Counted from the stretch's first letter, positions 10,127 through 60,432 are shown. The stretch is DNA of 64,000 bases from Alphaproteobacteria bacterium (GCA_030147745.1 JASBUS010000042.1:10836-74835), one strand, 5' to 3'. The notes: generated from the sequence alone by a model not told the origin. Numbers and translations: made by a program.

Positions 10127-10165
10127 ATATAAGGCATCATAGAAGAGTAGAAAAGGAAAAGACTA

Positions 10166-10789: not shown

Positions 10790-10798
10790 GTGTAATAA

Positions 10799-10814: not shown

Positions 10815-10843
10815 AGCTAATATCAGCTACATAGAGAGTAAAG

Positions 10844-12004
10844 ATGAAAAAATCAGTTTTAAAATATACGGTCGCAGCGCTGCTTTTAGGCGGAACTTCA
10901 TGGGTCGGCTATAATTATATTGATGGGCATATGCATCCGGCTGAAGCCGCAAGTGACGCGGCAGCAATGCCTGCCGCCATGGCAATGCCCGTCGATGTTG
11001 TTGTGATCGCGCCTGAGGCCGTAGAGATTTGGAAGAATTTTTCTGGCCATGTTGTTGCGGTTGATCATGCGGATATCCGCCCACAAGTCAGCGGACGCAT
11101 TCACGAAATTCATTTTGATAATGGCCAGCATGTCGAAAAAGGCGATTTGTTAATGGTCATTGATCCGCGCCCATATGAAGCGCGCGTGAACCAAGCAAAA
11201 GCAGCCTTACAAGCGGCAGAGACCCAAGCGAATTTGGCAGAAAAAGAATATCAACGTGCGAAGAAATTGATCAATTCAGATGCTATTTCACAAAGCATGT
11301 TAGATGAGCGCGTTAATAACCGTGAAGCCGCCGCGGCAGAGGTCGCAGGTGCAAAGGCCGCCGTGGAAAGCGCAGAGATTGATTTGGACTATGCATTTGT
11401 CAAAGCGCCCATTTCAGGCAAAATCAGCCGCGCCGAAATTACCGAAGGCAATTTGGTGCAAGCGGGTGCAAATGCACCTGTACTGACCTCAATCGTGGCC
11501 GATGATAAAGTCTATGTCGATTTCGAAGTTGATGAGCGCACCTATATTGAATCAGTCCGTAGCACCAAAGATAAAGGCCTAACCGAAATTCCTGTCCGCG
11601 TGAAAACAATCGGTGCAGATGCGGAATATCAAGGCACAGTACAAAGCTTTGACAACCATATTGATACAGCGACGGGCACAGTCCGCGCCCGCGCCATTTT
11701 CGAAAATCAAGATGGTGTCTTGTTGCCAGGTATGTCTGTCACCGTATTGATGGGGACAGCCAATGGCGATGACAAAATTTTGGTAACTGAACGCGCAATT
11801 GGCACAGACCAAGACCGTAAATTTGTTTATGTCGTTGGCGATGATAACACCGCGCAATATCGCGAAGTGAAAATCGGTGACGCGGTAAGCGGGCAGCGTG
11901 TGATCCTCTCGGGTCTTGAAGCAGGTGAAACGATTATCTCAGGTGGCATTGTTCGCATACGTCCAGGCATTCCTGTCGCGCCAAAAGCCGCAGCAGCGGA
12001 ATAA
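10844..12004 (+). CDS. RND efflux periplasmic adaptor (membrane fusion protein)
   Basis: 386 aa with an N-terminal anchor, a coiled-coil hairpin (QAKAALQAAETQANLAEKEYQRAKKL) and a lipoyl/beta-barrel pattern. It lies upstream of the RND pump. Confidence 0.85.
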   Translation: MKKSVLKYTVAALLLGGTSWVGYNYIDGHMHPAEAASDAAAMPAAMAMPVDVVVIAPEAVEIWKNFSGHVVAVDHADIRPQVSGRIHEIHFDNGQHVEKGDLLMVIDPRPYEARVNQAKAALQAAETQANLAEKEYQRAKKLINSDAISQSMLDERVNNREAAAAEVAGAKAAVESAEIDLDYAFVKAPISGKISRAEITEGNLVQAGANAPVLTSIVADDKVYVDFEVDERTYIESVRSTKDKGLTEIPVRVKTIGADAEYQGTVQSFDNHIDTATGTVRARAIFENQDGVLLPGMSVTVLMGTANGDDKILVTERAIGTDQDRKFVYVVGDDNTAQYREVKIGDAVSGQRVILSGLEAGETIISGGIVRIRPGIPVAPKAAAAE

Positions 12005-12042
12005 GTGAAGACTAGATAAGTATTTAAAGAAAGATCTATCAA

Positions 12043-41719: not shown

Positions 41720-42016
41720 ATGAGTTCACCACATGACGCACAAGAACAGGTAAATTGGCACTGGCGCAATACAACACGCCCAATGCGCTTTTTTAGCATG
41801 GATTCTCGAGCGGCTTTGCCTTATTTGATTTTGCTGCCTTATGCGCGCCCAATTAGTTTGGCGTTTTGCGTGATTTCGACCATTATTTTCGTGATCTTGG
41901 AAAAACATGGTTTGACCTTCCCATCGGCTTTGCGTGCGTTGCGCCACACTATGGTGGGGGAAAAACGTTATGCATTGGCACGTATTCGCCGCCGCCGTAT
42001 GCGCGACCTTGGCTAA
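41720..42016 (+). CDS. icmT: IcmT/TraK-family protein (Dot/Icm type IVB secretion inner-membrane component)
   Basis: 98 aa. HWRNTTRPMRFFSMDSRAALP, then a TM helix, then FVILEKHGLTFPSALRALRHTMVG. This matches the IcmT pattern HWRDSAR..RFF..DARAAFP ... LE+FGFT as I remember it. Confidence 0.7.
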   Translation: MSSPHDAQEQVNWHWRNTTRPMRFFSMDSRAALPYLILLPYARPISLAFCVISTIIFVILEKHGLTFPSALRALRHTMVGEKRYALARIRRRRMRDLG

Positions 42017-44930: not shown

Positions 44931-44978
44931 GCGGTAGGTAGTTTTTTAATGGCGGTAGCCGTTTGTGAGGAGAATATA

Positions 44979-47900
44979 ATGACCAATCAATCAATCAACG
45001 CAGAGTTTACACAATCTGACGTACAAGAAATAAGACTCGGCAATCAAAATATGCTTGAGATTATTTTGAACGATGGCACGGTGGTTGGTTATAGCGACCT
45101 TGATTTTTCAGGTTCAGCGCAAAGCTTCATTATTTTCAGCGACGGTAAAGCGATTGAGATTTCATCTCTGGTTGATACGCTAAACGCAGGTCAGTCATGG
45201 ACGACAGCGCAAATCACCGAAATGCAGGTTATTGGCGCCCCAGAAGGCATGGTTGAAAACTACGTTGTGGCTGAAGGCGGCGTATTAAAACTTGATGTTG
45301 ATCTCTCTCACGCAAAAATCACAAAACAAGGCGAAGAACTTACAATTGATATGGGCGAACAAGGCTCAGTCGTTATTTCGGGTGCTGAAGGCATCGAAGC
45401 TATTCAATTGGCGAGCGGCGTTGTTGTAAATCTTGATGTTCTTTTGGCGAATGCTTTCGCAGAAGAAATGGTTGCAGAAGTTGAACCACAAGCCCCAACA
45501 ATGGATAGCGCAGCTGAAGAATTTGCGGCTGTTGAGCCTGCGGCAGGCGATATCGCTGAACAACTCGCGACAATTGAACCGGCGGCTGGTGAGGGCGCAG
45601 CGCCTGGTGCACGTGGCGGTTATGGCTTTAGCTCTGTATTCTCATCTGAACAAGTTGCGCCATTGAACGAAATTGGCCCGATTGCACCAACAGCATTGCA
45701 ATATGGCATTGAATATTCTCAAGACCGCGTACTTCCACAAGAAGACGCGCCAGAGCGTTTGGTGACGCCACCAGAATTTGGCCCAAGCGAAGAGCTTGTT
45801 AACGAGATTCCAGCGCAGCCAACAACATTAAATGGCACATTGCCAGTATTCTTTGATTCAGATGGTTTTGGTTCAATCGCACCAAGCACAGCAGGTTTCT
45901 CTGCATCTGGTTCACTTGCGGGCGGCACATTAACATCATTAGGCGAAGCGGTTATCGTAACAGCGACAGCAAATGGTTATGAAGGCGCAACAGTAGGCGG
46001 CCGTACAGTATTCACAATCACTTTTGATAACCAAGGTGATTACAGCTTCGTTATTTATGATGGTATTGACCACGCAGACCCAACAAACCCAACAGATGTA
46101 ATTACACTTGAATTCGGCATCACAGCGGTTGATGGCGCGGGTGATACAGCATCTGGCACATTCACAATCGACGTGATCGACAGCGTTCCAGTCGCGGCAG
46201 ATGATCACGTATCAATGACACCATTCACGGACTTGGATGTTGATGGTAACGTTATCACAGGCCTTAACACAGGCGGTGCAGATACAGATAGTGATGACAT
46301 CACATCAACAGTGACAAATGTTGACGGTACAACAGTTATCGGCGCGACAACAATTAACGGTACATATGGTACTTTGGTCATTAACGCAGATGGCTCATTT
46401 GATTACACCTTGTTGAATAACTGGGATGTACTTGCGGGCGTTGATTACAGTGTTAGCAAAACATATGATTTCGACACATTCACATATACATATACAGACG
46501 CCGACGGCGATAGCGATACGGCGACATTAAGCTTTGATGGTTATGTCGCAGCACTTCCACCGCCAACAGCTGAGCCAAATGCAGTAACTGTGACAGAAGA
46601 TCTTGATCAAGTTACAGGCAAAGTAAAAATTATCTCTGATGATAACTCTATTTTGGCACATAGCCCGAATGGCGATATCACATCAGTCGCATATAACGGC
46701 ACATATTCAAGCAATGTTGGCACGCTAACATCAAATGGTTCACTTGTGACCATCGCGCAAACAGCCACTGGCCTTGTTGGTACAAACGCAACAGGCGAAA
46801 CAGTGTTTGATATCGTGATCACAAATAATGCAGGTATTTACGAATATACATATACTCAATACGCAACATTGGATCACCAAGAAGGCGGCGCATCTGATGA
46901 CCAGATGAGCATTGAATTCGGCATCACAATCACTGACGAATACGGCCTAACAGTTGATAGCAAAATCACAGCTTATGTGAATGATGATAATCCTGATGCG
47001 GTTAACGATGCGGCGACATTGGCGGATGGTCAAAACTTGATCACTGGCGATGTAACAGATAACGACCTATTCAGCGCGGATGCAGATAACCTTGTGACAG
47101 GTTATGTTGTTGCTGGTACATACGGTAACTTCACAGTAGATGCAGATGGTAACTACAGCTACGCCCTATACAACAACTGGGCTGACCTTGCGGGTGTTGA
47201 TTACACAACAAACGGTACATATACGCTTGATACATTCTCTTACGCGCTTGTTGATGGCGATGGCGACCAAGACATCGCAACAATTACATTCAACAAAGAC
47301 TTCAACAAACTGCCAAACCCTGAAGCCGCACCTTCAGAAGTAACAGTGACAGAAGACGCGCCACTTGGCTTTGATCATGCAGCAGGAACTGTTCATATCA
47401 TTTCAGCTTCTAATACGTTATCAATCACTAGCCCAAATGGTGAAATTACCTCAGTTGAATATAATGGTGTTTATGGTGAGAATAATGTTGGCGGCTTGTT
47501 CTCAAATGGATCTCCAGTAACGGTGACAGCAAAAGGTGGCGCTCCGCTTCCTCCACCATTTGGAGGAATTGAGCAATATGGTTTTGTTGGTAAGGATGCT
47601 GCTGGGCAGAAAGTGTTTGAGCTGTCTTTTTATAAAAATGCAGCAGGCGAATTTGAATATTTGTATACTCAATGGGCGCCACTTGATCATGAAGAAGGCC
47701 TAGCCTCTGATGATAAAATGATCATGGACTTCGGTGTGACAATCACTGATGAGTTCGGTCTTAGCACATCAACAAAAGTTACAGTGAACGTTATTGATGA
47801 TAACCCACTTGCTAACGCAGATAGTGCACAGCTTTCAGACACTGAAACATCTATCAGTGGTGACGTAACAACAAACGACCATTTCAGCGTTGATGCGTCA

Positions 47901-50900
47901 AACACAGTATCTGCAGGCTCAAGCCTTACAGGTACATATGGTGACCTAACAATCTTCGCAAATGGTTCATATACATATACATTGCATGCGAATTGGGCGA
48001 CAACAGCAGGCGTTGATTACAGCGTTGGCGGTACATTCACATTAGATACGTTTAAATACATCCTTACAGATGGCGATGGCGATACATCAGAGACAACACT
48101 TGATTTCTCTAAAATCGTTGATGCGCTTAACCCACCAACATTGGAAGCAACAGATAAAGTTCTTCACGAAGAGCGTAATGCTGACCCAAGCACATCTGGT
48201 GACCTAAGCGTGACAGGCGCGAATGGCGGCGTGGATAAGATTGAATTCACAGGTACATTCAATGCATCAGGTTCATTGGAAGGTGGCGTGCTATCTTACA
48301 AAGGTACAGCGATCACAACATCATATTCTGGCAATACTTACACAGGTATGGCGGGCACAGTGAAAGTGTTTGAACTAACACTTAACCCAACAACACAAAA
48401 ATATGAATTCACATTGTTTGAAACTTTGGATCACGAAGTTGAAAATGTTGCAGATGACATCACATTGTCTTTCGAAGTGAAAGTGACTGATGATTTCGGT
48501 TTGAGCGCGACAGACACAATTGATGTGAAAATCGTTGATGACCTGCCAGTAGCTGTTGATGACAGCGCAACATTGGCGGATGACAAAACAAGCATCACAG
48601 GCAATGTTTTGACAAACGACCAAGCAACATTCAGTGCGGATGATGACAACCTTGCTATCGCGAAAACATATACAGGCACTTATGGCGACATGACGCTGTA
48701 TGCGAATGGTTCATATACTTATACATTGCACGCGAACTGGGCGACAACAGCGGGTGTTGATTATGCAGCAGGCGGCAAATATACGCTTGATACATTCGAA
48801 TACACGTTGATTGATGGCGATACAGACACTGACACAGCCAATATTGAATTCTTCAAAATGGTTGATGCTTTGAATGCGCCAACAATTTCTGGTGTAGATA
48901 AAGAGCTTGTAGAGCTTCGTAATGCCGATCCATCAGTAAGCGGCGATATCACAGTAACGGGCGCAAATGGTGGTGTTGCTTCTCTTGAATTGGTTGATGG
49001 TACATTCGCAGCCTCTGGTTCACTAGAAAACGGTGCCTTCACATTCCAAGGCACACCGATTGTTACAACGCTTGTTGGTGATACCTTCACAGGTATGGCT
49101 GGCGCGGTTAAAGTGTTTGAATTGACACTTGACCCAACAACAGCAGATTACACATTCACATTATTCGAAACATTTGATCATGAAGTTGTTGGCGCAGCTG
49201 ACGAAATCACAGTGTCTTTCGATGTGAAAGTAACTGACGGTTACGGCTTTACAGCAACAGACACAATCAATGTTGATGTGATCGACTCACTTCCAGATGC
49301 AAAGAACGATGCAAAAACATTGGCAGATGGTCAGAACACAGTTTCTGGTAATGCCCTTGCAAATGACGTGTTGAGCGCGGATAACGACAATTCAGTCAGC
49401 AGCGCAGGCGTATTGAACGGTACTTATGGTCAGTTGGTGATTGATGCCAATGGTGATTATACATACACACTTTATGCGAACTGGGATAATGGTCTTGATT
49501 ACAGCAAAAACCACAGCTTGAAAGACACATTCCAATATACATTAATTGACGGTGATGATGACACAGATAAAGCAAATATCGTGATCACGAAACAAGTGAA
49601 CGCACTTGATAAGCCAGAGATCGATGTTGAAGATAACTGTGTAACAGAAGACCTTCCAATGGGCCCTGTGGTTTCAGGTAATTTGAACATTACAGATGCA
49701 AATGGCGGCATTAAATCAATTACGCCAGTTGATGGTACATTCTCATTCTCTGGTTCTTCAACAGCGCCAACATTGTCACATAATGGCGTGGCAATCACAG
49801 TCGCAGTTGTTGGTAACAGCTTCGTTGGTACAGCGGGCGCGGTTACAGTGTTTGAATTGGAAATTGACCCAGCAACACAAAGCTACACATTTGAATTGTT
49901 TGAAACACTCGATCACGCAGATGTAAATTCAGCGGATGTAATTAACCTATCTTTCGATGTGAAAGTAACTGATAATTACGACTTGAGCGCAACAGACACA
50001 ATTGACATCTGTATCATTGATGATCGTCCAATCGCAAATGATGACATGATCGAAATTGATGCGGGTCTTACAGACACAGCAACAGGCAATGTTGTGACAT
50101 CAAATGATGAACTAAGTGCGGACCTTGATAACACAGTGACATCTGTGAAATTCGAAGGCGTTAGCTACGATGTGCCAACATCTGGTGACTTGGTGATTGA
50201 CGGTAACTACGGTCAATTAACTATCGATGCAACAGGTGATTACACATATGTTCTTCGTGATGACATCATGACGAAAGAAACAACATATACATTCTCAACA
50301 GATAACCCTCCAGGCAGCGATGCAGGCGGCGACATCAAGAATGTAACAACAACATATAACGAAGATACGCATGAATTCACATTCCAAATGACAATTGCGG
50401 ACCCTTATGGTCGTACGACTGAAGGCTTCACATTGGCATTGAATGATGGCCCGAACCCTAAAGGTTCAGGTGAATTGGCGCTATTCTACTTTGATGCATC
50501 TTCAACAAATGCGTCTCCAGTTGTCTCTGCTTATGCTTATAACGGCCAAAACACACAAACAAGCTGGAAAGACGGTTCATCTGAAGCAGGTATCCAAGCG
50601 GCAGATCAAATCGCGTCATCACTTGGTGCGAACAGCCCGTTCTCATCTATCACAGCGACGATTGATGCGAATGGTAACCATGTTTACAGCTTCACATTGA
50701 ATGCTGATTTCATCCAAAACCACGTGCCAACATATGGCGACGCAGCGGATTGGACGGGTCTTGGTTTCGACCAAAATCTAGGCATTTGGTTGCACCCAGT
50801 GGCAGATATCGTGACAAAATATGACGCGGATGGTTACCTCACACAGTGGGATACATGTGCGCAAGGTTGGTACGATGCAAGCAACCTAACAACAACTGTG

Positions 50901-52442
50901 ACAACAACATGCACAGGCTGTGTTGGCGATGTCTTTGAATATACATTGACAGACAGCGACGGCGACAGCGATACAGCGCAGCTTGCGATCAAGTCTTGCT
51001 TCCCTAAATTCTTGGTGGGTGAGAATGTTGATGATATCGCGGGTGAAGACACTTACTACGCCGTTGGTGGTGAAAATGGTGTAATCACTGGCTCACATGC
51101 TTCTGATGTATTGGTTGGTGATGTTGGTGGCTCAACATATATCCCACCGCAGCCACAGGATTATAACTTTGTATTGATCCTTGATACTTCAGGCTCTATG
51201 GGTGCGAAAACAGGATCAACACGCCTAAGCAAGTTGATTGCAGCGGTCGAAAGCTTGGCTGATGATTTGGCAGCATATGATAACGGCGCAATCCGTGTGC
51301 ATATCGTTCCATTCGGGAATACAGCGCGCGGCACAGCAACATTCGATATTACTGACCAAGCAAGTGCAGATGCATTGGTTGATTGGTTGATGAATGACAT
51401 GCAAATTGGCGGCGTGACTAACTACGAATCAGCGTTACAAAGCGCGATTAACTGGTTGGAAACACCAAATGCAGCTTTGGGTGGTTCAGCTGAAACTTAC
51501 ACATATTTCATCTCTGATGGTGAACCAAATGCTTATGTGAACGCATCGGGCGGCACTGGTAGCGGTACAGCGAACGCAGTTGGTGAATATACAGGCAGCG
51601 ATGGCACAGATGAAGCATCTACAATCAAAGCATTGAGCACAGAAGTGATCGGCGTTGGTATTCAGCTTGGCACAACAGCATTGAGCCGTATTGACCTGAT
51701 CGATTCAGATGGTAGCTCTTTGAACATCACGAACCCTGATGATTTGACTGCAGCCCTAAAAGATTCAAACCCATTGACTGGCTTAACAGGCGTTGGTGGC
51801 GATGTAATCAATGGTGGCGCAGGCGAAGACATCATCTTCGGTGATAGCTTGAACACAGATATTTTGGCATTGCTTGAAGGTCTTGGTACAACGAAAGGTG
51901 CTGGCTGGGATGTATTCGCCCGTTTAGAAAACGGCGAAGGCACAACAGCAGATTGGGATCGTGACGATACATTGGCTTACATTAAAGCAAATGCAGAAGA
52001 ATTGGCTGAAGAAACACAGCTTGCTTCTGGCGGCACACGCAGCGGCGGTGATGACGTGATCACAGGCGGCGCAGGTGATGATTTGATCTTCGGTCAAGAA
52101 GGTGATGATGTTATCTCTGGCGGCGCAGGCAACAATGTTCTTTACGGCGGCAGCGGTAATGACACATTCTTGTTCGAGGCGATCACAGACGGCGTTGACG
52201 ACATTATGGATTTCACAGTTGGTGAAGACGTGCTTGATCTATCGCAATTGGTATCAATCACAGATCCACTAACACAATCTATTGAAGACTTTGTCTTCGC
52301 AAATGACAACGGCTCAGGTGGCACAACGCTTTCTGTCGATACCAGCGGCAGCGGCAATGTGAATAACGCTACAGCTATTGCAAATCTTGACGGTGTGGAC
52401 GTTGAATTGAGCGACCTTATCGCAAGCTTGCTTGTCGCATAA
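44979..52442 (+). CDS. Giant LapA/BapA-like repeat adhesin: N-terminal module, Ala/Glu/Pro linker, six VCBS/cadherin-like repeat units, VWA domain, RTX repeats, and a type I secretion C-terminal signal
   Basis: I chose the start at MTNQS because GAGGAG lies upstream; the ORF opens at 44949. There is no signal peptide. The repeated blocks are (V/I)DDxPxAxxD...GTYGxLxxxAxGxYTYTL...DTFxYTLxDGDGD. The MIDAS motif is ILDTSGSMG, and GGAGDDLIFGQEGDDVISGGAGNNVLYGGSGNDTF follows. Confidence 0.9.
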   Translation: MTNQSINAEFTQSDVQEIRLGNQNMLEIILNDGTVVGYSDLDFSGSAQSFIIFSDGKAIEISSLVDTLNAGQSWTTAQITEMQVIGAPEGMVENYVVAEGGVLKLDVDLSHAKITKQGEELTIDMGEQGSVVISGAEGIEAIQLASGVVVNLDVLLANAFAEEMVAEVEPQAPTMDSAAEEFAAVEPAAGDIAEQLATIEPAAGEGAAPGARGGYGFSSVFSSEQVAPLNEIGPIAPTALQYGIEYSQDRVLPQEDAPERLVTPPEFGPSEELVNEIPAQPTTLNGTLPVFFDSDGFGSIAPSTAGFSASGSLAGGTLTSLGEAVIVTATANGYEGATVGGRTVFTITFDNQGDYSFVIYDGIDHADPTNPTDVITLEFGITAVDGAGDTASGTFTIDVIDSVPVAADDHVSMTPFTDLDVDGNVITGLNTGGADTDSDDITSTVTNVDGTTVIGATTINGTYGTLVINADGSFDYTLLNNWDVLAGVDYSVSKTYDFDTFTYTYTDADGDSDTATLSFDGYVAALPPPTAEPNAVTVTEDLDQVTGKVKIISDDNSILAHSPNGDITSVAYNGTYSSNVGTLTSNGSLVTIAQTATGLVGTNATGETVFDIVITNNAGIYEYTYTQYATLDHQEGGASDDQMSIEFGITITDEYGLTVDSKITAYVNDDNPDAVNDAATLADGQNLITGDVTDNDLFSADADNLVTGYVVAGTYGNFTVDADGNYSYALYNNWADLAGVDYTTNGTYTLDTFSYALVDGDGDQDIATITFNKDFNKLPNPEAAPSEVTVTEDAPLGFDHAAGTVHIISASNTLSITSPNGEITSVEYNGVYGENNVGGLFSNGSPVTVTAKGGAPLPPPFGGIEQYGFVGKDAAGQKVFELSFYKNAAGEFEYLYTQWAPLDHEEGLASDDKMIMDFGVTITDEFGLSTSTKVTVNVIDDNPLANADSAQLSDTETSISGDVTTNDHFSVDASNTVSAGSSLTGTYGDLTIFANGSYTYTLHANWATTAGVDYSVGGTFTLDTFKYILTDGDGDTSETTLDFSKIVDALNPPTLEATDKVLHEERNADPSTSGDLSVTGANGGVDKIEFTGTFNASGSLEGGVLSYKGTAITTSYSGNTYTGMAGTVKVFELTLNPTTQKYEFTLFETLDHEVENVADDITLSFEVKVTDDFGLSATDTIDVKIVDDLPVAVDDSATLADDKTSITGNVLTNDQATFSADDDNLAIAKTYTGTYGDMTLYANGSYTYTLHANWATTAGVDYAAGGKYTLDTFEYTLIDGDTDTDTANIEFFKMVDALNAPTISGVDKELVELRNADPSVSGDITVTGANGGVASLELVDGTFAASGSLENGAFTFQGTPIVTTLVGDTFTGMAGAVKVFELTLDPTTADYTFTLFETFDHEVVGAADEITVSFDVKVTDGYGFTATDTINVDVIDSLPDAKNDAKTLADGQNTVSGNALANDVLSADNDNSVSSAGVLNGTYGQLVIDANGDYTYTLYANWDNGLDYSKNHSLKDTFQYTLIDGDDDTDKANIVITKQVNALDKPEIDVEDNCVTEDLPMGPVVSGNLNITDANGGIKSITPVDGTFSFSGSSTAPTLSHNGVAITVAVVGNSFVGTAGAVTVFELEIDPATQSYTFELFETLDHADVNSADVINLSFDVKVTDNYDLSATDTIDICIIDDRPIANDDMIEIDAGLTDTATGNVVTSNDELSADLDNTVTSVKFEGVSYDVPTSGDLVIDGNYGQLTIDATGDYTYVLRDDIMTKETTYTFSTDNPPGSDAGGDIKNVTTTYNEDTHEFTFQMTIADPYGRTTEGFTLALNDGPNPKGSGELALFYFDASSTNASPVVSAYAYNGQNTQTSWKDGSSEAGIQAADQIASSLGANSPFSSITATIDANGNHVYSFTLNADFIQNHVPTYGDAADWTGLGFDQNLGIWLHPVADIVTKYDADGYLTQWDTCAQGWYDASNLTTTVTTTCTGCVGDVFEYTLTDSDGDSDTAQLAIKSCFPKFLVGENVDDIAGEDTYYAVGGENGVITGSHASDVLVGDVGGSTYIPPQPQDYNFVLILDTSGSMGAKTGSTRLSKLIAAVESLADDLAAYDNGAIRVHIVPFGNTARGTATFDITDQASADALVDWLMNDMQIGGVTNYESALQSAINWLETPNAALGGSAETYTYFISDGEPNAYVNASGGTGSGTANAVGEYTGSDGTDEASTIKALSTEVIGVGIQLGTTALSRIDLIDSDGSSLNITNPDDLTAALKDSNPLTGLTGVGGDVINGGAGEDIIFGDSLNTDILALLEGLGTTKGAGWDVFARLENGEGTTADWDRDDTLAYIKANAEELAEETQLASGGTRSGGDDVITGGAGDDLIFGQEGDDVISGGAGNNVLYGGSGNDTFLFEAITDGVDDIMDFTVGEDVLDLSQLVSITDPLTQSIEDFVFANDNGSGGTTLSVDTSGSGNVNNATAIANLDGVDVELSDLIASLLVA
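45800..50300 (+). repeat. Six tandem coding repeat units of roughly 735-815 bp inside the adhesin gene
   Basis: The anchor motifs DxxP(V/D/L/I)Ax(D/N)D recur at about 46180, 46985, 47800, 48540, 49285 and 50020. The units at 47.8-49.3 kb are clearly similar at the DNA level. The outer boundaries are approximate. Confidence 0.7.
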
Positions 52443-52496: not shown

Positions 52497-52607
52497 CATG
52501 GCTATTGCTTGCGCCGCGGGGGTAAGCGCAAGCTTGTGATTGACCTTTATGGCGAAAATCTTATATAAAATAACGGAAATCAAATTTGATGTGATATTAT
52601 AAAGTTG

Positions 52608-53363
52608 ATGAATAACCGAGCCCATTTAAAAACGGTGAAACGTGGTCTATCCGTTCACCATCTTTCGAAAGCCTATAAGAAGCGTCCTGTTTTGCGGGAT
52701 GTTAGCTTATATGTACAGGCGGGCGAGGCGGTTGCTTTGCTTGGGCCAAACGGCGCGGGTAAAACCACAAGCTTTTATATTGTTACGGGCCTGATTAACC
52801 CAGATAGCGGTCAAGTTATGTTGGACGGCGTGGACATCACCCATATTCCGATGTATCGCCGTGCCCGTTTAGGGATTGGCTATCTGCCGCAGGAATCGTC
52901 AATTTTCCGTGGCTTAAATGTTGAAGACAATATTCGCGCCGTTTTACAGGCGCAGAATGATTTATCTGATCGTCAGCAAGATATCTTCCTTGAAGAACTA
53001 TTAGCGGAATTTTCGATTGAACATTTACGCCGCACACCTGCAATATCCCTTTCAGGTGGTGAGCGCCGCCGCGCGGAAATTGCGCGTGCATTGGCGGGGC
53101 GTCCGCAGTTTATCTTGTTGGATGAGCCGCTCGCCGGTATAGACCCGATTGCGGTTGCCGATATTCGCGGCCTGATCGCTCAATTAAAAACCCGCGGCAT
53201 TGGTGTGTTAATTACAGACCATAATGTGCGCGACTGTTTAGGTATTGTCGATCGCGCATATATCCTGCATGATGGACGCGTCCTGATGGAAGGCACACCA
53301 GGCGACATCGTTAATCACGAAGATGTCCGAAAAGTTTACCTCGGTGATGGATTCTCTCTGTAA
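52608..53363 (+). CDS. lptB: LPS export ABC transporter ATP-binding protein
   Basis: Walker A GPNGAGKTT, signature LSGGERRR, Walker B ILLDEP. It lies immediately upstream of rpoN. Confidence 0.9.
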   Translation: MNNRAHLKTVKRGLSVHHLSKAYKKRPVLRDVSLYVQAGEAVALLGPNGAGKTTSFYIVTGLINPDSGQVMLDGVDITHIPMYRRARLGIGYLPQESSIFRGLNVEDNIRAVLQAQNDLSDRQQDIFLEELLAEFSIEHLRRTPAISLSGGERRRAEIARALAGRPQFILLDEPLAGIDPIAVADIRGLIAQLKTRGIGVLITDHNVRDCLGIVDRAYILHDGRVLMEGTPGDIVNHEDVRKVYLGDGFSL

Positions 53364-53392: not shown

Positions 53393-54898
53393 ATGAGCAA
53401 GCTATCGCAAAATATTAATCTTAAACAAAGTCAGACGCTGGTGATGAACCAGCAAATGCAGCAGGCTATCAAGTTGCTGCAGCTGTCGAATGTTGAGCTC
53501 AGCGAATATCTGGAAGAGATATTAGAGGCTAATCCATTGCTTGAAAAAGTTGATGCGAGTGGCACGCATGAAAGCATGACGGATCGCAATCAAAAAGATA
53601 GCGATTCCATGGATGATAACTTCGCGCAAGATGATTGGGATAAATCAGGTGATAGCAGCGAAGCGTCTTATGAGCCCTCAGAAACGGAATATGCAAGTGG
53701 CGGCGATAGCCACGATGTCGGCGATAGCAGCAATGATATGCTCGGCGTTGGTGCGGGTGGGTCGCATAAATTTGATGACCCTGAATATTCATTTGAAAAC
53801 CGTTTAAGTAAAGAGCCGTCTTTGCGTGAACATTTGATGGATCAACTGCATATCATGACAGAAGATCCGCGTGACCGTATGATCGGTGCGCTTTTGATTG
53901 ACCAATTGGATGAGGCAGGTTACCTGCGCGCTGATCCTGAAGAATTAGCCGCGCGCCTTGAATGTTCTGAAGATCGCATTAGTAAATTGCTGACCAAAAT
54001 GAAATATTTTGACCCAGCGGGGATTTTTGCGCGTGACCTTGCGGATTGCTTGGCGATGCAGCTTGATGAAGCAGGGCAGCTCGATGCGCCAATGCATCGT
54101 TTGCTTGATAACCTTGATTTGCTAGCCGCGCATGAATGGGACAAATTATGCAAGGCTTGTGACGTGAACCGCGAATATCTGAATGATATGGTCGAAGAAT
54201 TGCGCCGCATGCAGCCAAAGCCCGCAAGTGAATTTGACCATTTTGTTGCGCAAACCGTTGTGCCAGATGTCTATATGCGCCCGCGTCCTAAAAATTTAGG
54301 CGGCGGCTGGCATGTTGAATTAAACAACGCGACTTTGCCAAAGGTTTTGGTTAATCAGGAATATTATACGACGGTCGCGAGCAAGGCGAACCGTAAGGAC
54401 GACAAAGACTTCTTATCATCGCAAATGCAATCTGCCAATTGGTTGGTGCGTGCACTTGACCAGCGCGCCCAAACCATTTTGAAAGTGGCGAGTGAGATTG
54501 TTGAGCAGCAAAATGCCTTCTTCTTATATGGCATTGAATTTTTGCAGCCGATGAATTTAAAAGACATCGCTGAAGCCATTGAAATGCATGAATCAACCGT
54601 TTCGCGTGTCACCACCAATAAATATATTGGTACGCCGCGCGGTGTGTTTGAGCTTAAATATTTCTTCTCAACCGCGCTGATTGGGGCTGATGGCTTGGTA
54701 CATTCTGCGGAAGCGGTGAAGTCAAAAATTAAATCCATGATTGATGGCGAAAGCCCTGATGCGATATTGTCTGATGACCGTATTGTTGAAATGTTAGCTG
54801 AAGATCATATCGATATTGCCCGCCGTACCGTTGCAAAATATCGTGAAGCTATGAATATCCCATCCTCTGTTCAGCGCCGTAAAATGAAAAAGCAATAA
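53393..54898 (+). CDS. rpoN: RNA polymerase sigma-54 factor
   Basis: Gln-rich region I (LKQSQTLVMNQQMQQAIKLLQLSN), an acidic region II, an HTH, and the RpoN box ARRTVAKYR. Confidence 0.95.
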   Translation: MSKLSQNINLKQSQTLVMNQQMQQAIKLLQLSNVELSEYLEEILEANPLLEKVDASGTHESMTDRNQKDSDSMDDNFAQDDWDKSGDSSEASYEPSETEYASGGDSHDVGDSSNDMLGVGAGGSHKFDDPEYSFENRLSKEPSLREHLMDQLHIMTEDPRDRMIGALLIDQLDEAGYLRADPEELAARLECSEDRISKLLTKMKYFDPAGIFARDLADCLAMQLDEAGQLDAPMHRLLDNLDLLAAHEWDKLCKACDVNREYLNDMVEELRRMQPKPASEFDHFVAQTVVPDVYMRPRPKNLGGGWHVELNNATLPKVLVNQEYYTTVASKANRKDDKDFLSSQMQSANWLVRALDQRAQTILKVASEIVEQQNAFFLYGIEFLQPMNLKDIAEAIEMHESTVSRVTTNKYIGTPRGVFELKYFFSTALIGADGLVHSAEAVKSKIKSMIDGESPDAILSDDRIVEMLAEDHIDIARRTVAKYREAMNIPSSVQRRKMKKQ

Positions 54899-55022
54899 AA
54901 CTATGTATAGTTTTATTGTTGGCTCTAGAATTTATTGCAATTGTATTTCAGTGCGACATACTCTAAACTATGCTTTGCTAAGAAGCATATTTCGCGAATA
55001 AATAATCTATAGATATATCACC

Positions 55023-55523
55023 ATGATTAAAAAACATTTTCAAATTTTGTCTTTGGTTTCGGTCCTAGCGCTTGCAGGCTGTGATACAGCTTCGGTCATT
55101 CGTAATGATGCACCACAAGTTGTGGCGTCCCCTGACCGTGTTTCTCTAATGTTGGCAGATGCCGCAGATAAAGCGTCCGTCGCTTTGGAAACATTAGCGG
55201 CGATCGAGCAATATAATTCACCAAAAGTTGCAACAGCGGCGCCAGCGAATGTTCCGGCGGAATTGAACCGCGCGGTGACAATCGATTGGATCGGTCCAGT
55301 TGAGCAAATCTCTAAAACATTGGCGGACCAATCTGGTTACCGCTTTGTTGTTTTAGGTGATGTGCCGCCTGTACCAGTCGTTGTTGATGTCGATGTTGAA
55401 AATCGCCCGATTATCGAAGTGCTTCGCAATATCGGCCTACAGCTTGGCCGCCGTGCGGATTTGAAGCTTGATTCAAACCGCCGCGTCGTTGAAATCTATT
55501 ATGCACCGGTTTCCGGTCTTTAA
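55023..55523 (+). CDS. dotD: DotD/TraH-family lipoprotein (type IVB secretion outer-membrane core)
   Basis: Lipobox LALAGC. VTIDWIGPVEQISKTLADQSGYRFVVLGDVPPVPVVVDVDVENRPIIEVLRNIG...VVEIYYAP parallels Legionella DotD (VDWSGPIEEL...FRFRVLGK.P.VPVLISI......EILRDI...VVELRYAK) as I remember it. Confidence 0.8.
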   Translation: MIKKHFQILSLVSVLALAGCDTASVIRNDAPQVVASPDRVSLMLADAADKASVALETLAAIEQYNSPKVATAAPANVPAELNRAVTIDWIGPVEQISKTLADQSGYRFVVLGDVPPVPVVVDVDVENRPIIEVLRNIGLQLGRRADLKLDSNRRVVEIYYAPVSGL

Positions 55524-55595
55524 GTGGCATATGTGATGGCGGGCGGCTATTTTTAGCCGCAATGCCCTCACGATATAATGATAAGGTTAGAAATT

Positions 55596-56474
55596 ATGCG
55601 CATATCAACTCTATCTCGTTCAAAAATTCGCCATATGCTTATGGGTGCGTCTGTATTTGGCGTTTTACTTACTGCGGGTTCTATGTCTGCGATGGCGGCT
55701 GACGGTAAAATGGCGAAATTGACCATGGAACCACCGCGCAAAATGAAAGAATTACAAAATATTGAGCCGGTCAATGTTGACCGCGAAAAGGCAGAAAAAG
55801 CAATGCCGCTTGATATTCGCCGTGATGCATTGATCGAGGCCGCTTTGTCTTTTGGCGCACGTGGCGGCTTGGCGATGCGTACCTATGAGATTAATAAAGA
55901 ACTCGATCGCCAAACAAGCTATTTGGACAAAATCTATAACTTCAGAAGCTTATTAATTGCTGTGCCATCAGGTTTGTTGGTTGAACCGCCAATTATTTCT
56001 GAATCTGTTGATGCGATGATTATTGATGGCGATGGCCAAAGCGCAGCGGTATCTGACCGTATCTATAACATCAATAAAAACGCTAAAATCGTTGCGGCAG
56101 CACGTGACTGGCGTGATTATTTGCAGCGCGATTGGGGGGAAGTGAAAAACCCGCCTGAATTATTGATGCCGCAAGATGATGAAGAGCGCGAAATTTGGGA
56201 AGAAAAAGTCGCACAAGGTTGGAAGAGTGGCTATAAACAAGCCGATGAAACATTCGAAGCCGACTTGGCCCGCCTTGTCAGTGAGTTTAGCGGCATGGTG
56301 CGTTACCGTAAACTATTGGCACAAGGCATGGTTTCCCCACCTTATGCGAATCAGGTTGACCGCGGTGTAACAGGCGGTGGTTATGAAATGCGCGTTGGTG
56401 ACCGTGCAATTCAGCTCACAGGTAAACCGCAACTGATCAGTGGACACAGCCAATGGAAGCCCGCAAACCGGTAA
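55596..56474 (+). CDS. dotC: DotC/TraI-family protein (type IVB secretion outer-membrane core)
   Basis: ~293 aa, between dotD and dotB as in Legionella/Coxiella. Signal peptide ...LLTAGSMSAMA/AD. The conserved region is IRRDALIEAALSFGARGGLAMR ... NFRSLLI ... VEPPIISE. The start is ATG 55596 (AAGG upstream) or 55578. Confidence 0.7.
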   Translation: MRISTLSRSKIRHMLMGASVFGVLLTAGSMSAMAADGKMAKLTMEPPRKMKELQNIEPVNVDREKAEKAMPLDIRRDALIEAALSFGARGGLAMRTYEINKELDRQTSYLDKIYNFRSLLIAVPSGLLVEPPIISESVDAMIIDGDGQSAAVSDRIYNINKNAKIVAAARDWRDYLQRDWGEVKNPPELLMPQDDEEREIWEEKVAQGWKSGYKQADETFEADLARLVSEFSGMVRYRKLLAQGMVSPPYANQVDRGVTGGGYEMRVGDRAIQLTGKPQLISGHSQWKPANR

Positions 56475-57613
56475 GCCTTCTTAAAGGCGCAGACAACATT
56501 GCCCAGACATGGCCTGATGAACCTGATCGTTTTCATCAGGAACATGTCGACAATTATCTGCTGTGGTGCGTAAAAAAAGGCGCATCCGATATTACCATTC
56601 AAACAGATCGTCCAGGCTATAACGATATTTCTGGTATATTATATCCAGGGACATATCGTCCGATTGATGCGGCGGATATGAACGTCTTTTTAGCCAAAAT
56701 CTACGGCCCTGATGCCGCGGCGCGCTTGGCCTCTGGTACGGATTTGGACGTATCTTATGAAATTCGACCTGACCGTTATACCCGTATTCGTTTTCGTGTG
56801 AATATTACCGCGATTCTCTCTCGTGGTCGTGATGCTGTGCAAATCACGATGCGTACTCTGCCAAGTGAGCCGCCAACAATGAAGGCGCTTAACGTCGAAC
56901 AAGAAATCATCGATAACTGGGCGCCACGTCAGGGCATGGTGGTGATTACGGGGCCAACAGGCTCTGGTAAATCAACATTGCTCTCTGCGGGTAACCGTAT
57001 GCTGCTTGAGCGTATCCATGGCTGCGGCAAAATGCTGACTTATGAATCGCCGATCGAATATACATACGACACAATCAAATCACCGCGCTCACTTGTCTCG
57101 CAAACCGAAATTCCACGTCACTTACCAGACTTCGCGGCTGGCGTGCGTAATGCGCTTCGTCGTAAGCCAGAGATTATTTTGGTGGGTGAGGCGCGTGATA
57201 AAGAAACAATCTCTGCTGCGATTGAGGCGGCACAAACTGGTCACGCTGTATATACGACAACCCACACAACAGGTGTGGCCTCAACCGTCCGCCGTATGAT
57301 CACGACCTTTGATACGACAGAACGGAACGAACGTGCGTTCGCCTTGATGGAAACATTACGTATGATCGTCACGCAGGCGCTTGTCCCTAAAATTGGTGGT
57401 GGCCGTTTAGGCTTACGCGAATGGATGGTTTTTCCTGCCAATGTGCGTGAAAAATTACTCGATATGGAGTTTGATGACTGGACCAATGAAATTCAGCGTA
57501 TGATTCCTGCCTATGGCCAAACCATGAATAAATCAGCAACCAATGCGTTTGAAGCTGGCTTAATCGAAAAACGTCATTACCTTGCCCTAACAGCGGGCGA
57601 AGGTGGCCATTAA
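56453..57613 (+). CDS. dotB: DotB/TraJ secretion ATPase (PilT-like hexameric ATPase of type IVB systems)
   Basis: PDEPDRF...ASDITIQT, Walker A GPTGSGKST, TYESPIEY, SQTEIPRHLPDFAAGVRNALRRKPEIILVGEARD, and TGHAVYTTTHT. This is collinear with Legionella DotB as I remember it. It overlaps the dotC end by 22 nt. Confidence 0.85.
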   Translation: MEARKPVSLLKGADNIAQTWPDEPDRFHQEHVDNYLLWCVKKGASDITIQTDRPGYNDISGILYPGTYRPIDAADMNVFLAKIYGPDAAARLASGTDLDVSYEIRPDRYTRIRFRVNITAILSRGRDAVQITMRTLPSEPPTMKALNVEQEIIDNWAPRQGMVVITGPTGSGKSTLLSAGNRMLLERIHGCGKMLTYESPIEYTYDTIKSPRSLVSQTEIPRHLPDFAAGVRNALRRKPEIILVGEARDKETISAAIEAAQTGHAVYTTTHTTGVASTVRRMITTFDTTERNERAFALMETLRMIVTQALVPKIGGGRLGLREWMVFPANVREKLLDMEFDDWTNEIQRMIPAYGQTMNKSATNAFEAGLIEKRHYLALTAGEGGH

Positions 57614-57754
57614 TTACCATAAAATTATTGTTATATTACAGAACGTTGTACGATTTATTTGCGTGCTGCGCCGCAATGGGCGTAGATTATTTACCTATAA
57701 CAGGCATGACTAATATGCCGCGAGATAATTTAATAGGTAATAAGGTGTAGAGTA

Positions 57755-58273
57755 ATGACAAATTCAAATATTAAAGCAGCAGCCCTTTTGGTAACAGCAT
57801 TAACAGCATCAGGCTGCGCAAGTGTGAACACAGCTTTCGACCAAGCAACAGGTCTTGGCAATCAGGCTTTTTCAGCGCTGAATAACCAAACATTTAACAA
57901 AGCGACAAGCATTAACTATGATAACGCAACTGGCGCTCCAAGCTTTGTTGCCGATAGCAAAGGCGTTGGCGCTTGTCTACGTTCAGATGAATTGCGTACT
58001 GAAGTACAACAAAAAATCAAAACTAAACAATCTTTGCCAGTTTTGACATATGCACATGAACAATTTAAATCAGCGACAGAAACATGCGCGCAATATACAG
58101 CCTTCAAATTGGGTGAAAACTTCGGCTGTTCAGCCGTTGGCGGTGATGTCGTGGTAAAAGCCACAGGCACAACACCACTTGCACCACGTGAATGTTCAAC
58201 AGACAATATTTTCTTGCGCCTAACCGAAATTAAAAAAGGTGCATATTTGCCAGGCGGTAAATATAACCCATAA
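57755..58273 (+). CDS. Hypothetical lipoprotein downstream of dotB
   Basis: Lipobox LTASGC, 172 aa, four further Cys. It is on the same strand as dotDCB, and the first good terminator follows it. Confidence 0.55.
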   Translation: MTNSNIKAAALLVTALTASGCASVNTAFDQATGLGNQAFSALNNQTFNKATSINYDNATGAPSFVADSKGVGACLRSDELRTEVQQKIKTKQSLPVLTYAHEQFKSATETCAQYTAFKLGENFGCSAVGGDVVVKATGTTPLAPRECSTDNIFLRLTEIKKGAYLPGGKYNP

Positions 58274-58296
58274 TGAATTGATCAGTTTTTATGAAA

Positions 58297-58325
58297 GCGC
58301 CCGCTGAGATATGCGGGCGTTTTTA
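58297..58325 (+). terminator. Intrinsic terminator after the dotDCB-lipoprotein block
   Basis: GCGCCCGC-tgagatat-GCGGGCG followed by TTTTT. Confidence 0.75.
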
Positions 58326-58398
58326 CTTTAAGGGTATTTTAATATACCTAATGTAAAATTCACGAAGGTAAAGTCGTATTATATTTTGGGGAAAGACT

Positions 58399-59145
58399 GT
58401 GGGAAAATCCATATTCGAACATCAGCGTCATATTGAAAATATGCGTATGCGAAATGGCTTGGAATCAATAAAAGATAATATTCCTGGTGTAGTCGAAAAA
58501 CTCGAAAATACAGGCATGTCTTTAAAAAATCAGTTTAGTGCGGTGAGCAAAATGCTTGATGCATTTGATACGCCAGAAGAACAATTAGCTGCTGTTGAAG
58601 GGCAATTAAAGGGCTTGATCTTGTTATCTGATAACCTTGACTTAGCCATGAAATCGGATAGTTCAGTTGTAAGAGCGCAGGCCCAAGTGGCCGATAAGAA
58701 TTTAGATATTCATTATGAACGCGGCGTTTTACGATTTATGCTAGAAACTGGACGTAATTATCCAGATGATATCCCACAAAAGTTAATCGATGATACGCGT
58801 GATATGATGGAGCGTACAGGTTTGGTTGATCGTTTTCGTGCCAAAGGTTTAAGTGAAGAGGAAATCAGCGAAGCAGCTGAAAATCTCGCTGGTTATGCAT
58901 TAACAAATGCCGAATTTATACAGGATGTGAAGCATGATGCGGGTATCCATTCTGCGCCAGAGGTTGATGAAGTCGCTGTAGACTTGTGGAGTGGCAATAC
59001 AGGCGATGATTATAGTGTCAGTGAAGACGACATATCCCTCGATAAAGCCTTAGTGAGCGATACAGGCGATTTGAATACACCTCAGCAAACACAATCCGCG
59101 CCACAAGAACAGAAAATTGCACCTGCATCATTACATTTTAACTAA
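58399..59145 (+). CDS. Hypothetical protein with a helical N-terminal part and an acidic, Ser/Asp-rich C-terminal tail
   Basis: 248 aa with a GTG start and no signal peptide. The C-terminus is ...DDYSVSEDDISLDKALVSDTGDLNTPQQTQSAPQEQKIAPASLHFN. I recognise no family. Confidence 0.45.
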   Translation: MGKSIFEHQRHIENMRMRNGLESIKDNIPGVVEKLENTGMSLKNQFSAVSKMLDAFDTPEEQLAAVEGQLKGLILLSDNLDLAMKSDSSVVRAQAQVADKNLDIHYERGVLRFMLETGRNYPDDIPQKLIDDTRDMMERTGLVDRFRAKGLSEEEISEAAENLAGYALTNAEFIQDVKHDAGIHSAPEVDEVAVDLWSGNTGDDYSVSEDDISLDKALVSDTGDLNTPQQTQSAPQEQKIAPASLHFN

Positions 59146-59147
59146 GC

Positions 59148-59681
59148 TTACTTGATAACATTTTTCATGATGTGATCTTTTTCGCGAATTTTCTTCGCTG
59201 CGCCGCCTTTTTCTTGCAGCGCGATTTCACCATTTTCATCAAGATGAATACGCACGCCATTTGGCAGGTGGATGGATTTAGTGTTAAAACCTGCTGTGAG
59301 TGTAATGTCTTGCGCTGCTGCGAGGGCTTCGGCTTGTTCTTTTTGTTGGCGTACGTCTTCTGCCGCGCGTGTTAAGAAATTATCTGCGTTTTGGCACCAG
59401 TCTCTTCGAAGGGAATAGCCATAGTCTGCAGGTTCAAAAGGCGAAACAAAAACGCGAACATTATTGCTAATGTCAGCGAGTTCACGAATATGCTCACATT
59501 TGGTATCGTCAGGGCATTTTAAGAGATATTGGCCAGATTGTGTTGCGATCCAAGACGTCACACGTGCGCTAGCGCTCAACATGTCAGCAATGTCGTTATG
59601 ATTATTGCCCTTTAAATTCGTGCATGTAAGGTTTAAATATCGTGCCATGTGAAAAACCTGCCTAAAATATTGTTTAGACAT
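59148..59681 (-). CDS. Hypothetical protein (last gene of the tsaD-gpsA string)
   Basis: 177 aa, or 166 aa from ATG 59648. I recognise no family. Confidence 0.45.
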   Translation of the reverse strand: MSKQYFRQVFHMARYLNLTCTNLKGNNHNDIADMLSASARVTSWIATQSGQYLLKCPDDTKCEHIRELADISNNVRVFVSPFEPADYGYSLRRDWCQNADNFLTRAAEDVRQQKEQAEALAAAQDITLTAGFNTKSIHLPNGVRIHLDENGEIALQEKGGAAKKIREKDHIMKNVIK

Positions 59682-59727: not shown

Positions 59728-60432
59728 TTAATTGTCATTGCTTTTTTGTTGATAAAGCGAGAGGCCAGAGCCGATTTGCAAGGCATGAGCAGGATCTATA
59801 GCGCCGTTATAGAAACTCTCACCAACCAACGCGCCGGCAATATTATGATCCCCCGCGATTGAGGCAATCGCCAAAAGCTCTTCAACGGAGGCAAGCTTAT
59901 TCGCATAGAAAATGGGTGCTTGGCAGCTTTTACGCAGTGCGACAAGGCGCGTTAAATCAAGCGCGGCATCATCGCTATAGAATAGGGCATAGGCGCCATA
60001 GTCATGAATATTCGCGCCAATTTTACCAAGGTCGAATTGTGCCACGCCGCTATCCACCTTGCCGCCAGTGCTATGCAGATGCATCGCAATTTGGTCAGGG
60101 TAATGGGCGCAGGCCTCCTGAATGAAATTATGATCGGTCAGCGCAATATTGTTTAAAATCACGCGGCTAACCCCTTCGGCGAAAAGGCGGTCAATATCGC
60201 TTAATGTTTTTAATGCACCTTCGAAAATCACAGGCACATCAACCGCATCGATGATTTGACGCAAGCTATGAATGCATTCTTCATCAAGGGCCATATCTTG
60301 GCTTTGGATATATAGCCATGAAAAACCCGCCTTCACAAATTGCGCGGCAATATCCGCAGGCGTTGCAACGCTGCCATCAAATTGATAGAGCGATGCGCCG
60401 TCTTTAATCGCGATTTTTGGTAAAATCAACAT
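59728..60432 (-). CDS. HisA/HisF-like (beta/alpha)8-barrel protein with degenerate catalytic and phosphate-binding motifs
   Basis: 234 aa, collinear with HisA (MLILPKIAIKDG vs MIIPALDLIDG; VIFEGALKT vs VQVGGGVRS; ALVGESF vs VIVGRAL). The N-terminal catalytic Asp position is Ala and both glycine-rich phosphate loops are lost. Confidence 0.55.
   Translation of the reverse strand: MLILPKIAIKDGASLYQFDGSVATPADIAAQFVKAGFSWLYIQSQDMALDEECIHSLRQIIDAVDVPVIFEGALKTLSDIDRLFAEGVSRVILNNIALTDHNFIQEACAHYPDQIAMHLHSTGGKVDSGVAQFDLGKIGANIHDYGAYALFYSDDAALDLTRLVALRKSCQAPIFYANKLASVEELLAIASIAGDHNIAGALVGESFYNGAIDPAHALQIGSGLSLYQQKSNDN

Follow-up and report, generated by a model that had tools for sequence, protein, structure and literature searches.

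Several forms of type IVB secretion system (T4BSS) are related to the one described here. The Dot/Icm system of Legionella, an intracellular gammaproteobacterium, is encoded on the chromosome with no relaxase gene nearby. IncI1 (R64-type) plasmids have a Tra/Trb system in which TraH, TraI, TraJ, and TraK are homologous to DotD, DotC, DotB, and IcmT, and they also have a PilL-V thin pilus. Plasmid-borne clusters in Piscirickettsia salmonis and a Bosea sp. (NZ_CP038209 and NZ_AP022849) are compact and surrounded by insertion sequences (IS). The kib system of Pseudomonas putida IsoF is of the Dot/Icm type, with DotD and DotH/G/F, and is a contact-dependent killer of Gram-negative bacteria. Its 67-kb island was acquired recently, carries an integrase, has a GC content below that of its own genome, and occurs in few strains (PMC9519443). 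Here we describe dotD, dotC, and dotB, which occupy positions 55023 to 57613 of a 64,000-nucleotide stretch of DNA (the window) from an alphaproteobacterium (GCA_030147745.1, JASBUS010000042.1:10836-74835). An earlier reading of the window from its sequence alone (the sequence-only reading) had proposed these three genes as a Dot/Icm core. We find that the trio is one of several small operons, set among housekeeping genes, that encode a T4BSS in a native, dispersed form. The host is a marine member of the Micavibrio group. Cultured members of this group are alphaproteobacteria and obligate epibiotic predators of Gram-negative bacteria.

The three plus-strand open reading frames (ORFs) are present as proposed (Table 1). 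We searched their products against Pfam and NCBIfam profiles and compared them with PDB chains of L. pneumophila proteins. The matches had E values of 1e-19 to 1e-119, which is far past chance, and the L. pneumophila proteins were the best or only PDB matches for all three. DotB scored 398 bits on the DotB model (TIGR02524), 228 on the TraJ model, and 220 on the PilT model. It matched L. pneumophila DotB (PDB 6geb) with 359 bits and 48.5% identity over 369 residues, and its Walker A, Walker B, and His box motifs align with those of 6geb. DotC reached 263 bits on the Pfam model of its family (T4SS_TraI, PF16932; cutoff, 26) and matched L. pneumophila DotC (PDB 6x62) with 161 bits and 40% identity over 220 residues. 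The 292-residue form of DotC is the one used by gene callers and on record in the protein collection, in which the 298-residue form had no exact match. For DotD, the Pfam score was 123 bits (PF16816; cutoff, 27), and the match to L. pneumophila DotD (PDB 6x62/3ady) was 73 bits, with 31% identity over 149 aligned residues. The DotD lipobox is kept in 26 of 33 orthologs from the clade. The dotC and dotB genes overlap by 22 nt, which suggests that their translation is coupled. Profiles and structures thus bear out the gene order and motifs of the sequence-only reading, and we regard the interval as almost certainly a genuine dotD-dotC-dotB cluster.

A DotB scan with one genome per species found the protein in 43 related species genomes at 68 to 96% identity. 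All were metagenome-assembled genomes (MAGs), labeled Micavibrio, Alphaproteobacteria, or Pseudobdellovibrionaceae, and the sole other match was a Legionella sequence (28%). The closest DotB was in MAG ARS11 (96%), followed by those of three marine "Micavibrio sp." MAGs (92 to 94%). NCBI taxonomy files Micavibrio under Bdellovibrionales/Pseudobdellovibrionaceae, which accounts for the odd labels. The M. aeruginosavorus genome paper treats Micavibrio as an alphaproteobacterium (PMC3189940), and the MAG labels agree. Furthermore, a hemC-hemD-mitofilin (Mic60)-hemY arrangement adjoins the window, which is consistent with an alphaproteobacterium. The Mic60 protein (PF09731) is encoded just to the right of the window, at 17091 to 18938 of L001/L059 (locus labels are ours throughout). 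A Mic60 gene between hemD and hemY is typical of alphaproteobacteria. Therefore, we place the host there despite "Bdellovibrionota" labels, as the sequence-only reading had done from the flanking genes.

The trio supplies core subunits of the machine, as had been proposed, but it is not the whole core, which is scattered over several operons. Within the window there is also a solitary icmT. Its product scored 81.6 bits on NCBIfam NF038220 (IcmT_TraK), passing the equivalog cutoff of 40, and P. salmonis IcmT matched it in tblastn (E value, 5e-9). The neighbors of this icmT are unrelated: a questin-oxidase-like gene on one side and, on the other, a gene without known function and a response regulator gene. 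In other Micavibrionales, icmT directly follows dotB, where it encodes a 99-residue membrane protein (Pfam PF28014) with 40 to 46% identity to IcmT of the Bosea plasmid. The window IcmT is 57% identical to the one after dotB in L062. A scaffold of the same species (ENA scaffold_159; 108,249 bp) encodes DotD, DotC, and DotB identical to those of the window and continues past hemC with hemD, mic60, hemY, nadE, a flavodoxin-like gene, clpA, and clpS; on the opposite strand, dotL, orf162, and dotM come next. This places dotM-orf162-dotL ~16 to 20 kb past dotB, just outside the window. The DotL of this scaffold has 880 residues and 40% identity to P. salmonis DotL (463 bits), and its DotM matches PF23127. 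We had considered a dotL directly after hemY, as in L008 to L010, but in the window's species nadE comes first and dotL lies further on. The C terminus of DotL/IcmO in the marine subclade forms a long tail of low complexity, rich in Pro, Ala, and Gln, in which (D/S)PMGFF(G/A)G motifs recur (right ends of L008, L009, and L010 at ~19.4 to 21.2 kb, and L061 at 10001 to 12643). The tail of Legionella DotL is where the IcmS/IcmW/LvgA adaptors bind.

Other parts of the machine were found in relatives. In Micavibrio sp. UBA2137 (L014/L062), the T4BSS genes are almost contiguous: dotD-dotC-dotB-icmT, four genes of a family that we call c0, and then a block from icmL to icmB. The order of this block is icmL, icmK/dotH, icmE/dotG, an IcmG-like gene, a TraQ/IcmC-like gene, a 125-residue ORF in the icmD position, icmJ, and icmB, and it is colinear with Legionella region II. 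IcmL scored 188 bits (cutoff, 175) and IcmJ/DotN scored 90.7 bits (cutoff, 100). IcmK/DotH matched Legionella DotH (6x62) with 148 bits, DotG/IcmE scored 134 bits, and the IcmG-like and TraQ-like matches were weak. A 1,005-residue protein of L062 has 39% identity over 951 residues to P. salmonis IcmB/DotO (708 bits). IcmB orthologs at least 69% identical are abundant across the clade, and some are on contigs equal in length to four DotB-bearing contigs, including one from a MAG labeled M. aeruginosavorus. The refuting case named in the sequence-only reading, a genome without the other T4BSS core genes, is thus not borne out: icmT lies within the window, its species also has dotM and dotL, and relatives have icmL, -K, -E, -G, -C, -J, and -B.

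Around 30 other Micavibrionales loci share a conserved order: a DsbC/thioredoxin-like gene, a gene of 325 to 400 codons without known function (c7), an SLT lytic transglycosylase gene, dotD-dotC-dotB, icmT, and a gene for a PilL-like protein with a TcpQ/STN domain. Five loci (L019, L033, L042, L046, and L048; at ~11.5 to 20 kb in each) have a type IVb thin-pilus cluster like that of IncI plasmid R64 after dotB-icmT. It encodes the TcpQ/PilL-like protein, a PilN-like secretin, PAP_PilO, a small ORF, a PilQ-like ATPase, a PilR-like membrane protein, and a type IV pilin. In most other loci, dotB-icmT is followed by flgL, flgK, and three or four tandem c0 paralogs. Large ORFs beside the trio in other loci were considered as DotA or IcmB but proved to be leuS and ftsK. 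The c0 proteins have ~370 to 470 residues, with a signal peptide and then a Cys-rich stretch such as CCIACVRCNAPG, and they occur in 22 related loci. Their genes lie between icmT and icmL or beside flgK/flgL (L014, 11466 to 16556; L062, 2706 to 7724; and most of L013 to L047). They had no sequence match in Pfam, NCBIfam, or PDB and no homolog in the window. The family is a candidate for a new T4BSS-associated component or effector family. The 817-residue ORF that follows icmB and the lipoprotein encoded behind dotB likewise had no match in PDB sequence searches.

In the related loci, the trio and its dotC/dotB overlap were present as far as the retrieved DNA reached: the complete set was detected in 38 of 43 loci, and the remainder were cut short or had one gene under the hit threshold. 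We compared the trio with three marine relatives by the ratio of nonsynonymous to synonymous substitution rates (dN/dS), which is approximate here because dS is ~1 to 2, near saturation. The values were 0.03 to 0.04 for dotB, 0.04 to 0.10 for dotD, and 0.08 to 0.16 for dotC, on the level of or under those of lptB (0.03 to 0.05), rpoN (0.05 to 0.07), gpsA, and tsaD (0.08 to 0.17). DotB is the most conserved protein of the neighborhood, with 92 to 96% identity where RpoN has 78 to 92%. In GC content, GC content at third codon positions (GC3), and codon score, dotD, dotC, and dotB had z-values of -1.3 to +1.6 relative to 36 other window genes, and icmT was also within the spread of those genes. 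The trio is therefore native in composition. A tRNA scan, an Rfam scan, and a composition-anomaly check of the window found nothing, and there was no relaxase domain among the genes of the window, ~15 kb further to the left, ~22 kb to the right (on the same-species scaffold), or L062. The sequence-only reading had seen no integrase, tRNA, relaxase, or IS boundary and no sign of a recent conjugative island, and the scans and composition agree. A recent genomic island or integrative conjugative element was rejected on the native composition, the absence of tRNA genes, and the clade-wide distribution.

The same reading had the trio inserted directly behind lptB-rpoN. The position is correct, but "inserted" is misleading, as the trio is old and clade-wide. 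Only one marine subclade, that of the four closest marine genomes (L007 to L010), has the trio behind rpoN, and in the cultured relative M. aeruginosavorus ARL-13, rpoN (GMV_158) is followed by hpf (GMV_159), so the trio does occupy what is the hpf slot there. Only the rpoN-adjacent position is young, and the trio itself is an old trait widespread in the clade. The T4BSS as a whole is likewise found across the clade, is passed on by vertical descent, and evolves under strong purifying selection.

How does this system compare with those already described? DotB, DotC, and DotD are orthologous to the Legionella proteins over nearly their full lengths, and the dotD-dotC-dotB order is the same. As in Legionella, the genes are chromosomal with no relaxase nearby, and DotL, DotM, and IcmT are present, along with the icmL-K-E-G-C-(D)-J-B series of the relative. 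In contrast to Legionella, the host belongs to an alphaproteobacterial predator group, so the target is probably prokaryotic; the marine subclade has its genes distributed over at least three small operons that lie among housekeeping genes, and DotL carries the long low-complexity tail. The P. salmonis and Bosea clusters have the dotD-dotC-dotB-icmT order of most Micavibrionales, and identity to their proteins is ~42% for DotB, 39% for IcmB, and 40% for DotL. However, those clusters are plasmid-borne, whereas the window genes are chromosomal and dispersed, with icmT 13 kb from dotB. The kib system is the only experimentally shown precedent for the antibacterial function proposed below. Unlike kib, the system of the Micavibrionales has a native composition, is dispersed, and extends through the clade; no effector-immunity pair was identified for it. 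The Xanthomonadales X-T4SS, including that of Lysobacter enzymogenes, offers a functional analogy only, as a system that delivers toxins into rival or prey bacteria (work cited in PMC12428579). It is a VirB/VirD4 (type IVA) system without DotB, DotC, or DotD and shares only general type IV secretion ancestry.

This system has barely been described before, and its interest comes from the predatory host and from a contradiction with the reference genome paper. That paper, published in 2011 on M. aeruginosavorus, expressly excluded secretion systems of types III and IV and suggested hemolysins and secreted hydrolases instead (PMC3189940). However, in its expression table for ARL-13 (Additional file 4), GMV_383 is named "icmO" (2,583 bp) and lies beside hypothetical genes of 582 and 1,215 bp. 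These match orf162 and dotM in size, so the region fits the pattern of dotL, a small ORF, and dotM. Because its own table lists icmO, the reference description of the cultured predator overlooked the system. A 2022 marine survey with MacSyFinder reported pT4SSi (IcmB and more than six components, with no relaxase) in "seven Micavibrionales" in a single sentence (PMC9418006). DotB, DotD, IcmB, IcmE, and IcmO are names that the pipelines of JGI and NCBI already assign to these proteins. No paper in the searchable literature ties a T4BSS to Micavibrio predation.

It is likely that the trio belongs to a functional T4BSS. By analogy with Legionella, DotC and the lipoprotein DotD would build an outer membrane cap with DotH, and DotG and DotF would span the periplasm. 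DotB, a soluble PilT-like ATPase, would dock on the cytoplasmic face and energize the machine together with IcmB/DotO. DotL, DotM, and DotN would recruit protein substrates, to be pushed in one step into the contacted cell. Going by the lifestyle of the group, that cell would be Gram-negative prey, and the machine might serve killing or feeding in the attachment phase. Since the organism comes from a lineage that preys on bacteria, prey bacteria are a likelier target than a eukaryotic host; still, direction of the T4BSS at prey is a proposal that we put forward tentatively. Overall, the observations are probably best explained by a native T4BSS operon of a Micavibrio-group bacterium that makes a machine for contact-dependent protein delivery into prey. 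A further step, in which the dispersed, vertically inherited T4BSS would be the conduit for killing and draining Gram-negative prey and thus, instead of a mobile weapon, a predation organelle that is core to the clade and defines it, is more speculative still.

Several points weigh against this explanation. Two of the NCBIfam scores fall below equivalog cutoffs: DotB, with 398 bits, is under the curated cutoff of 463, and DotD, with 110.8 bits on T4SS_lipo_DotD, is under 140, although it reaches family level. DotC has an ordinary signal peptide (…SAMA/ADG) with no lipobox cysteine, and the lipobox is absent from 35 of 39 DotC orthologs, whereas Legionella DotC has one. The VirB4-family ATPase IcmB/DotO is mandatory in TXSScan; the IcmB/DotO and DotG/H/I genes were seen in clade relatives and not in the window's own genus, and no marine-subclade contig bearing IcmB was among the 120 matches listed. 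The step to that genus leans on the relatives and on the single survey sentence (PMC9418006). Unlike in Legionella, DotA, IcmS/IcmW/LvgA, IcmQ/R, and IcmX were not recognized, and neither was IcmF/DotU: tblastn, Pfam, and NCBIfam searches of the ~20 kb that surrounds each locus gave no match. P. salmonis DotA, DotN, IcmW, and hypothetical proteins likewise had no tblastn match in any locus. We identified neither effectors nor immunity genes, and no translocation signal. The expression index of ARL-13 icmO is 4.3 in the attack phase and 3.5 in the attachment phase (PMC3189940), so the gene is not induced in the attachment phase. Finally, the marine Micavibrionales are uncultured, and a predatory lifestyle is attributed to them by their taxonomy.

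The strongest alternative is that the T4BSS acts on a eukaryotic cell, delivering effectors into a protist host or grazer as in Legionellales and Coxiellales. To our knowledge, every well-studied chromosomal Dot/Icm system targets eukaryotic cells, and this too counts against prey as the target. The DotB described here is nearest to Legionella DotB and not to plasmid TraJ, and the marine survey groups Micavibrionales with relatives of "described pathogens" (PMC9418006); that the marine lineage is uncultured also leaves room for such a host. However, the same system is in MAGs labeled M. aeruginosavorus, and the obligate predator ARL-13 has icmO. There are no genes for ankyrin, F-box, or other eukaryote-like domains in the window or its flanks, and the window instead has predator-style traits: it encodes a chemotaxis receptor, and its giant RTX adhesin genes are syntenic with ARL-13 genes that attachment induces. 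We consider a eukaryotic target unlikely.

Much less probable is a role in a type IVb pilus or adhesion, in which DotB would be a PilT-like retraction motor and DotC and DotD its outer membrane partners for prey attachment. DotB is in the PilT family and matches PilT structures at 120 to 150 bits, DotD has a secretin-N0-like fold (PMC2951367), and a pil cluster adjoins the trio in the five loci named above. Most loci, and the window, have no pil genes beside the trio, however. Moreover, the clade has DotL, DotM, DotN, IcmB, DotG, DotH, and DotI, and a full translocon and coupling set is needless for a pilus alone, which weakens this idea. A conjugative function, in which DNA would be the cargo and the trio would belong to an I-type (IncI-like, MPF-I) system or to an old integrative conjugative element, is slightly less probable again. 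It would fit the homology of DotC, DotD, and DotB to IncI TraI, TraH, and TraJ, the IncI-like thin-pilus cluster after the trio and icmT in those five loci, and the DsbC-like and SLT transglycosylase genes that flank the trio in most loci. Against it, there is no relaxase, oriT-like feature, integrase, tRNA, or IS in the window or ~45 kb of extra flank, and the genes are on neither a plasmid nor an island. They are scattered among core genes, with native composition and housekeeping-level dN/dS across the clade. DotB also scores far higher on the DotB model than on the TraJ model, matches to IncI-type plasmid proteins have less than 40% identity, and the MacSyFinder class assigned to Micavibrionales systems is the relaxase-less pT4SSi (PMC9418006). 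A decaying, functionless remnant of an ancestral T4BSS might be suspected from only four, dispersed T4BSS genes in 64 kb and the subcutoff DotB and DotD scores, but intact reading frames, conserved motifs, the conserved dotC/dotB overlap, intact partner operons in the same species, and above all dN/dS values of 0.03 to 0.16 with synonymous sites near saturation come close to refuting it.

If the T4BSS is such a core predation organelle, type IVB effector translocation against bacteria would extend throughout an entire predatory alphaproteobacterial lineage and widen the single known case of a bacterium-targeting T4BSS, that of P. putida IsoF. New machine parts or antibacterial effectors would then be among the products of the c0 paralogs, c7, orf162, and the variable ORFs that follow dotB. 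In any case, the system is a candidate predation apparatus for knockout and imaging, as a cultured, genetically approachable relative has at least icmO. It adds a lineage outside the Legionellales with an ancient chromosomal T4BSS that is not plasmid or island borne, and a structurally distinct one, with a DotC predicted to be nonlipidated, no recognizable IcmS/W adaptors, and scattered operons.

Table 1. Positions of T4BSS genes and adjoining features in the window
Feature	Position	Strand	Description
icmT	41720..42016	+	98 aa; small inner membrane T4BSS protein; solitary, ~13 kb upstream of dotD
lptB	52605-53363		Directly upstream of rpoN and the trio
rpoN	53393-54898		Directly upstream of dotD
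rpoN-dotD gap	54899..55022	+	124 nt; presumed operon promoter region
dotD	55023..55523	+	166 aa; outer membrane core-complex lipoprotein; lipobox LALAGC; N0/secretin-like C-terminal domain
dotC	55596..56474	+	292 aa; outer membrane core-complex subunit; alternative upstream start at 55578
dotB	56453..57613	+	386 aa; PilT-like hexameric secretion ATPase
Terminator-like GC hairpin	57666..57685	+	53 nt past the dotB stop codon; possible operon end

Directly after the rpoN stop codon there is a near-perfect AT-rich palindrome, AAAACTATgtATAGTTTT (54899 to 54916), which could be a weak terminator or an operator. A single sigma-70-like match lies at 54884 to 54911, but matches of this kind are about as numerous as chance would give. 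Because rpoN adjoins dotD, a sigma-54 promoter was considered and rejected: there is no -24/-12 match in the gap, and sigma-54 matches across the whole window are fewer than in shuffled sequence. The hairpin after dotB is weak evidence for an operon end, as terminator-like sites are no commoner than in shuffled sequence.

Downstream of the trio are a hisA-like gene, gpsA, tsaD, and hemC. Between dotB and the hisA-like gene (57755 to 59681) are a 172-residue lipoprotein (lipobox LTASGC), a 248-residue ORF, and a 177-residue ORF on the minus strand, all three without relatives in Pfam, NCBIfam, or PDB. They are AT rich, with GC3 z-scores of -3.9, -3.4, and -1.6. They also vary among strains: orf248 is absent from the same-species scaffold_159, orf177 from L007 to L010, and the lipoprotein gene from L010. 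As they directly follow the T4BSS operon, they may be accessory or cargo genes that were acquired recently. The HisA/HisF-fold gene (59728 to 60432, minus strand) scored 58 bits against a HisA equivalog cutoff of 243 and evolves fast, with 49 to 77% identity among relatives in which gpsA has 82 to 90%. It is probably a divergent paralog with a different function.

Other genes in the window encode a chemoreceptor, an RND efflux system, cbb3-oxidase accessory proteins, and two RTX proteins. A response regulator gene, an aldehyde dehydrogenase gene, and a giant RTX/VWA adhesin gene (42.7 to 52.4 kb) are syntenic with ARL-13 GMV_103 to GMV_107. The adhesin (44949 to 52442; 2,497 residues), encoded just upstream of lptB, has RTX, cadherin, and VWA domains and a C-terminal RTX type I secretion signal region. 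It differs between strains (96% identity; 2,463 versus 2,497 residues). Its syntenic counterpart, GMV_107, rises from an expression index of 0.3 in the attack phase to 16.9 in the attachment phase in the ARL-13 table (PMC3189940). The second RTX protein (19263 to 22175) has 970 residues and 12 RTX repeat matches. Leftward on the same-species scaffold, there are only cbb3 oxidase and fixGHIS genes. Finally, a segment at 6726 to 9294 with saccharopine-dehydrogenase-like, DCC1/DUF4166, and DUF2269 genes is absent from the same-species contigs L054 and L055, in which mscS is followed directly by the DUF6498 gene. This difference is a strain-level indel.

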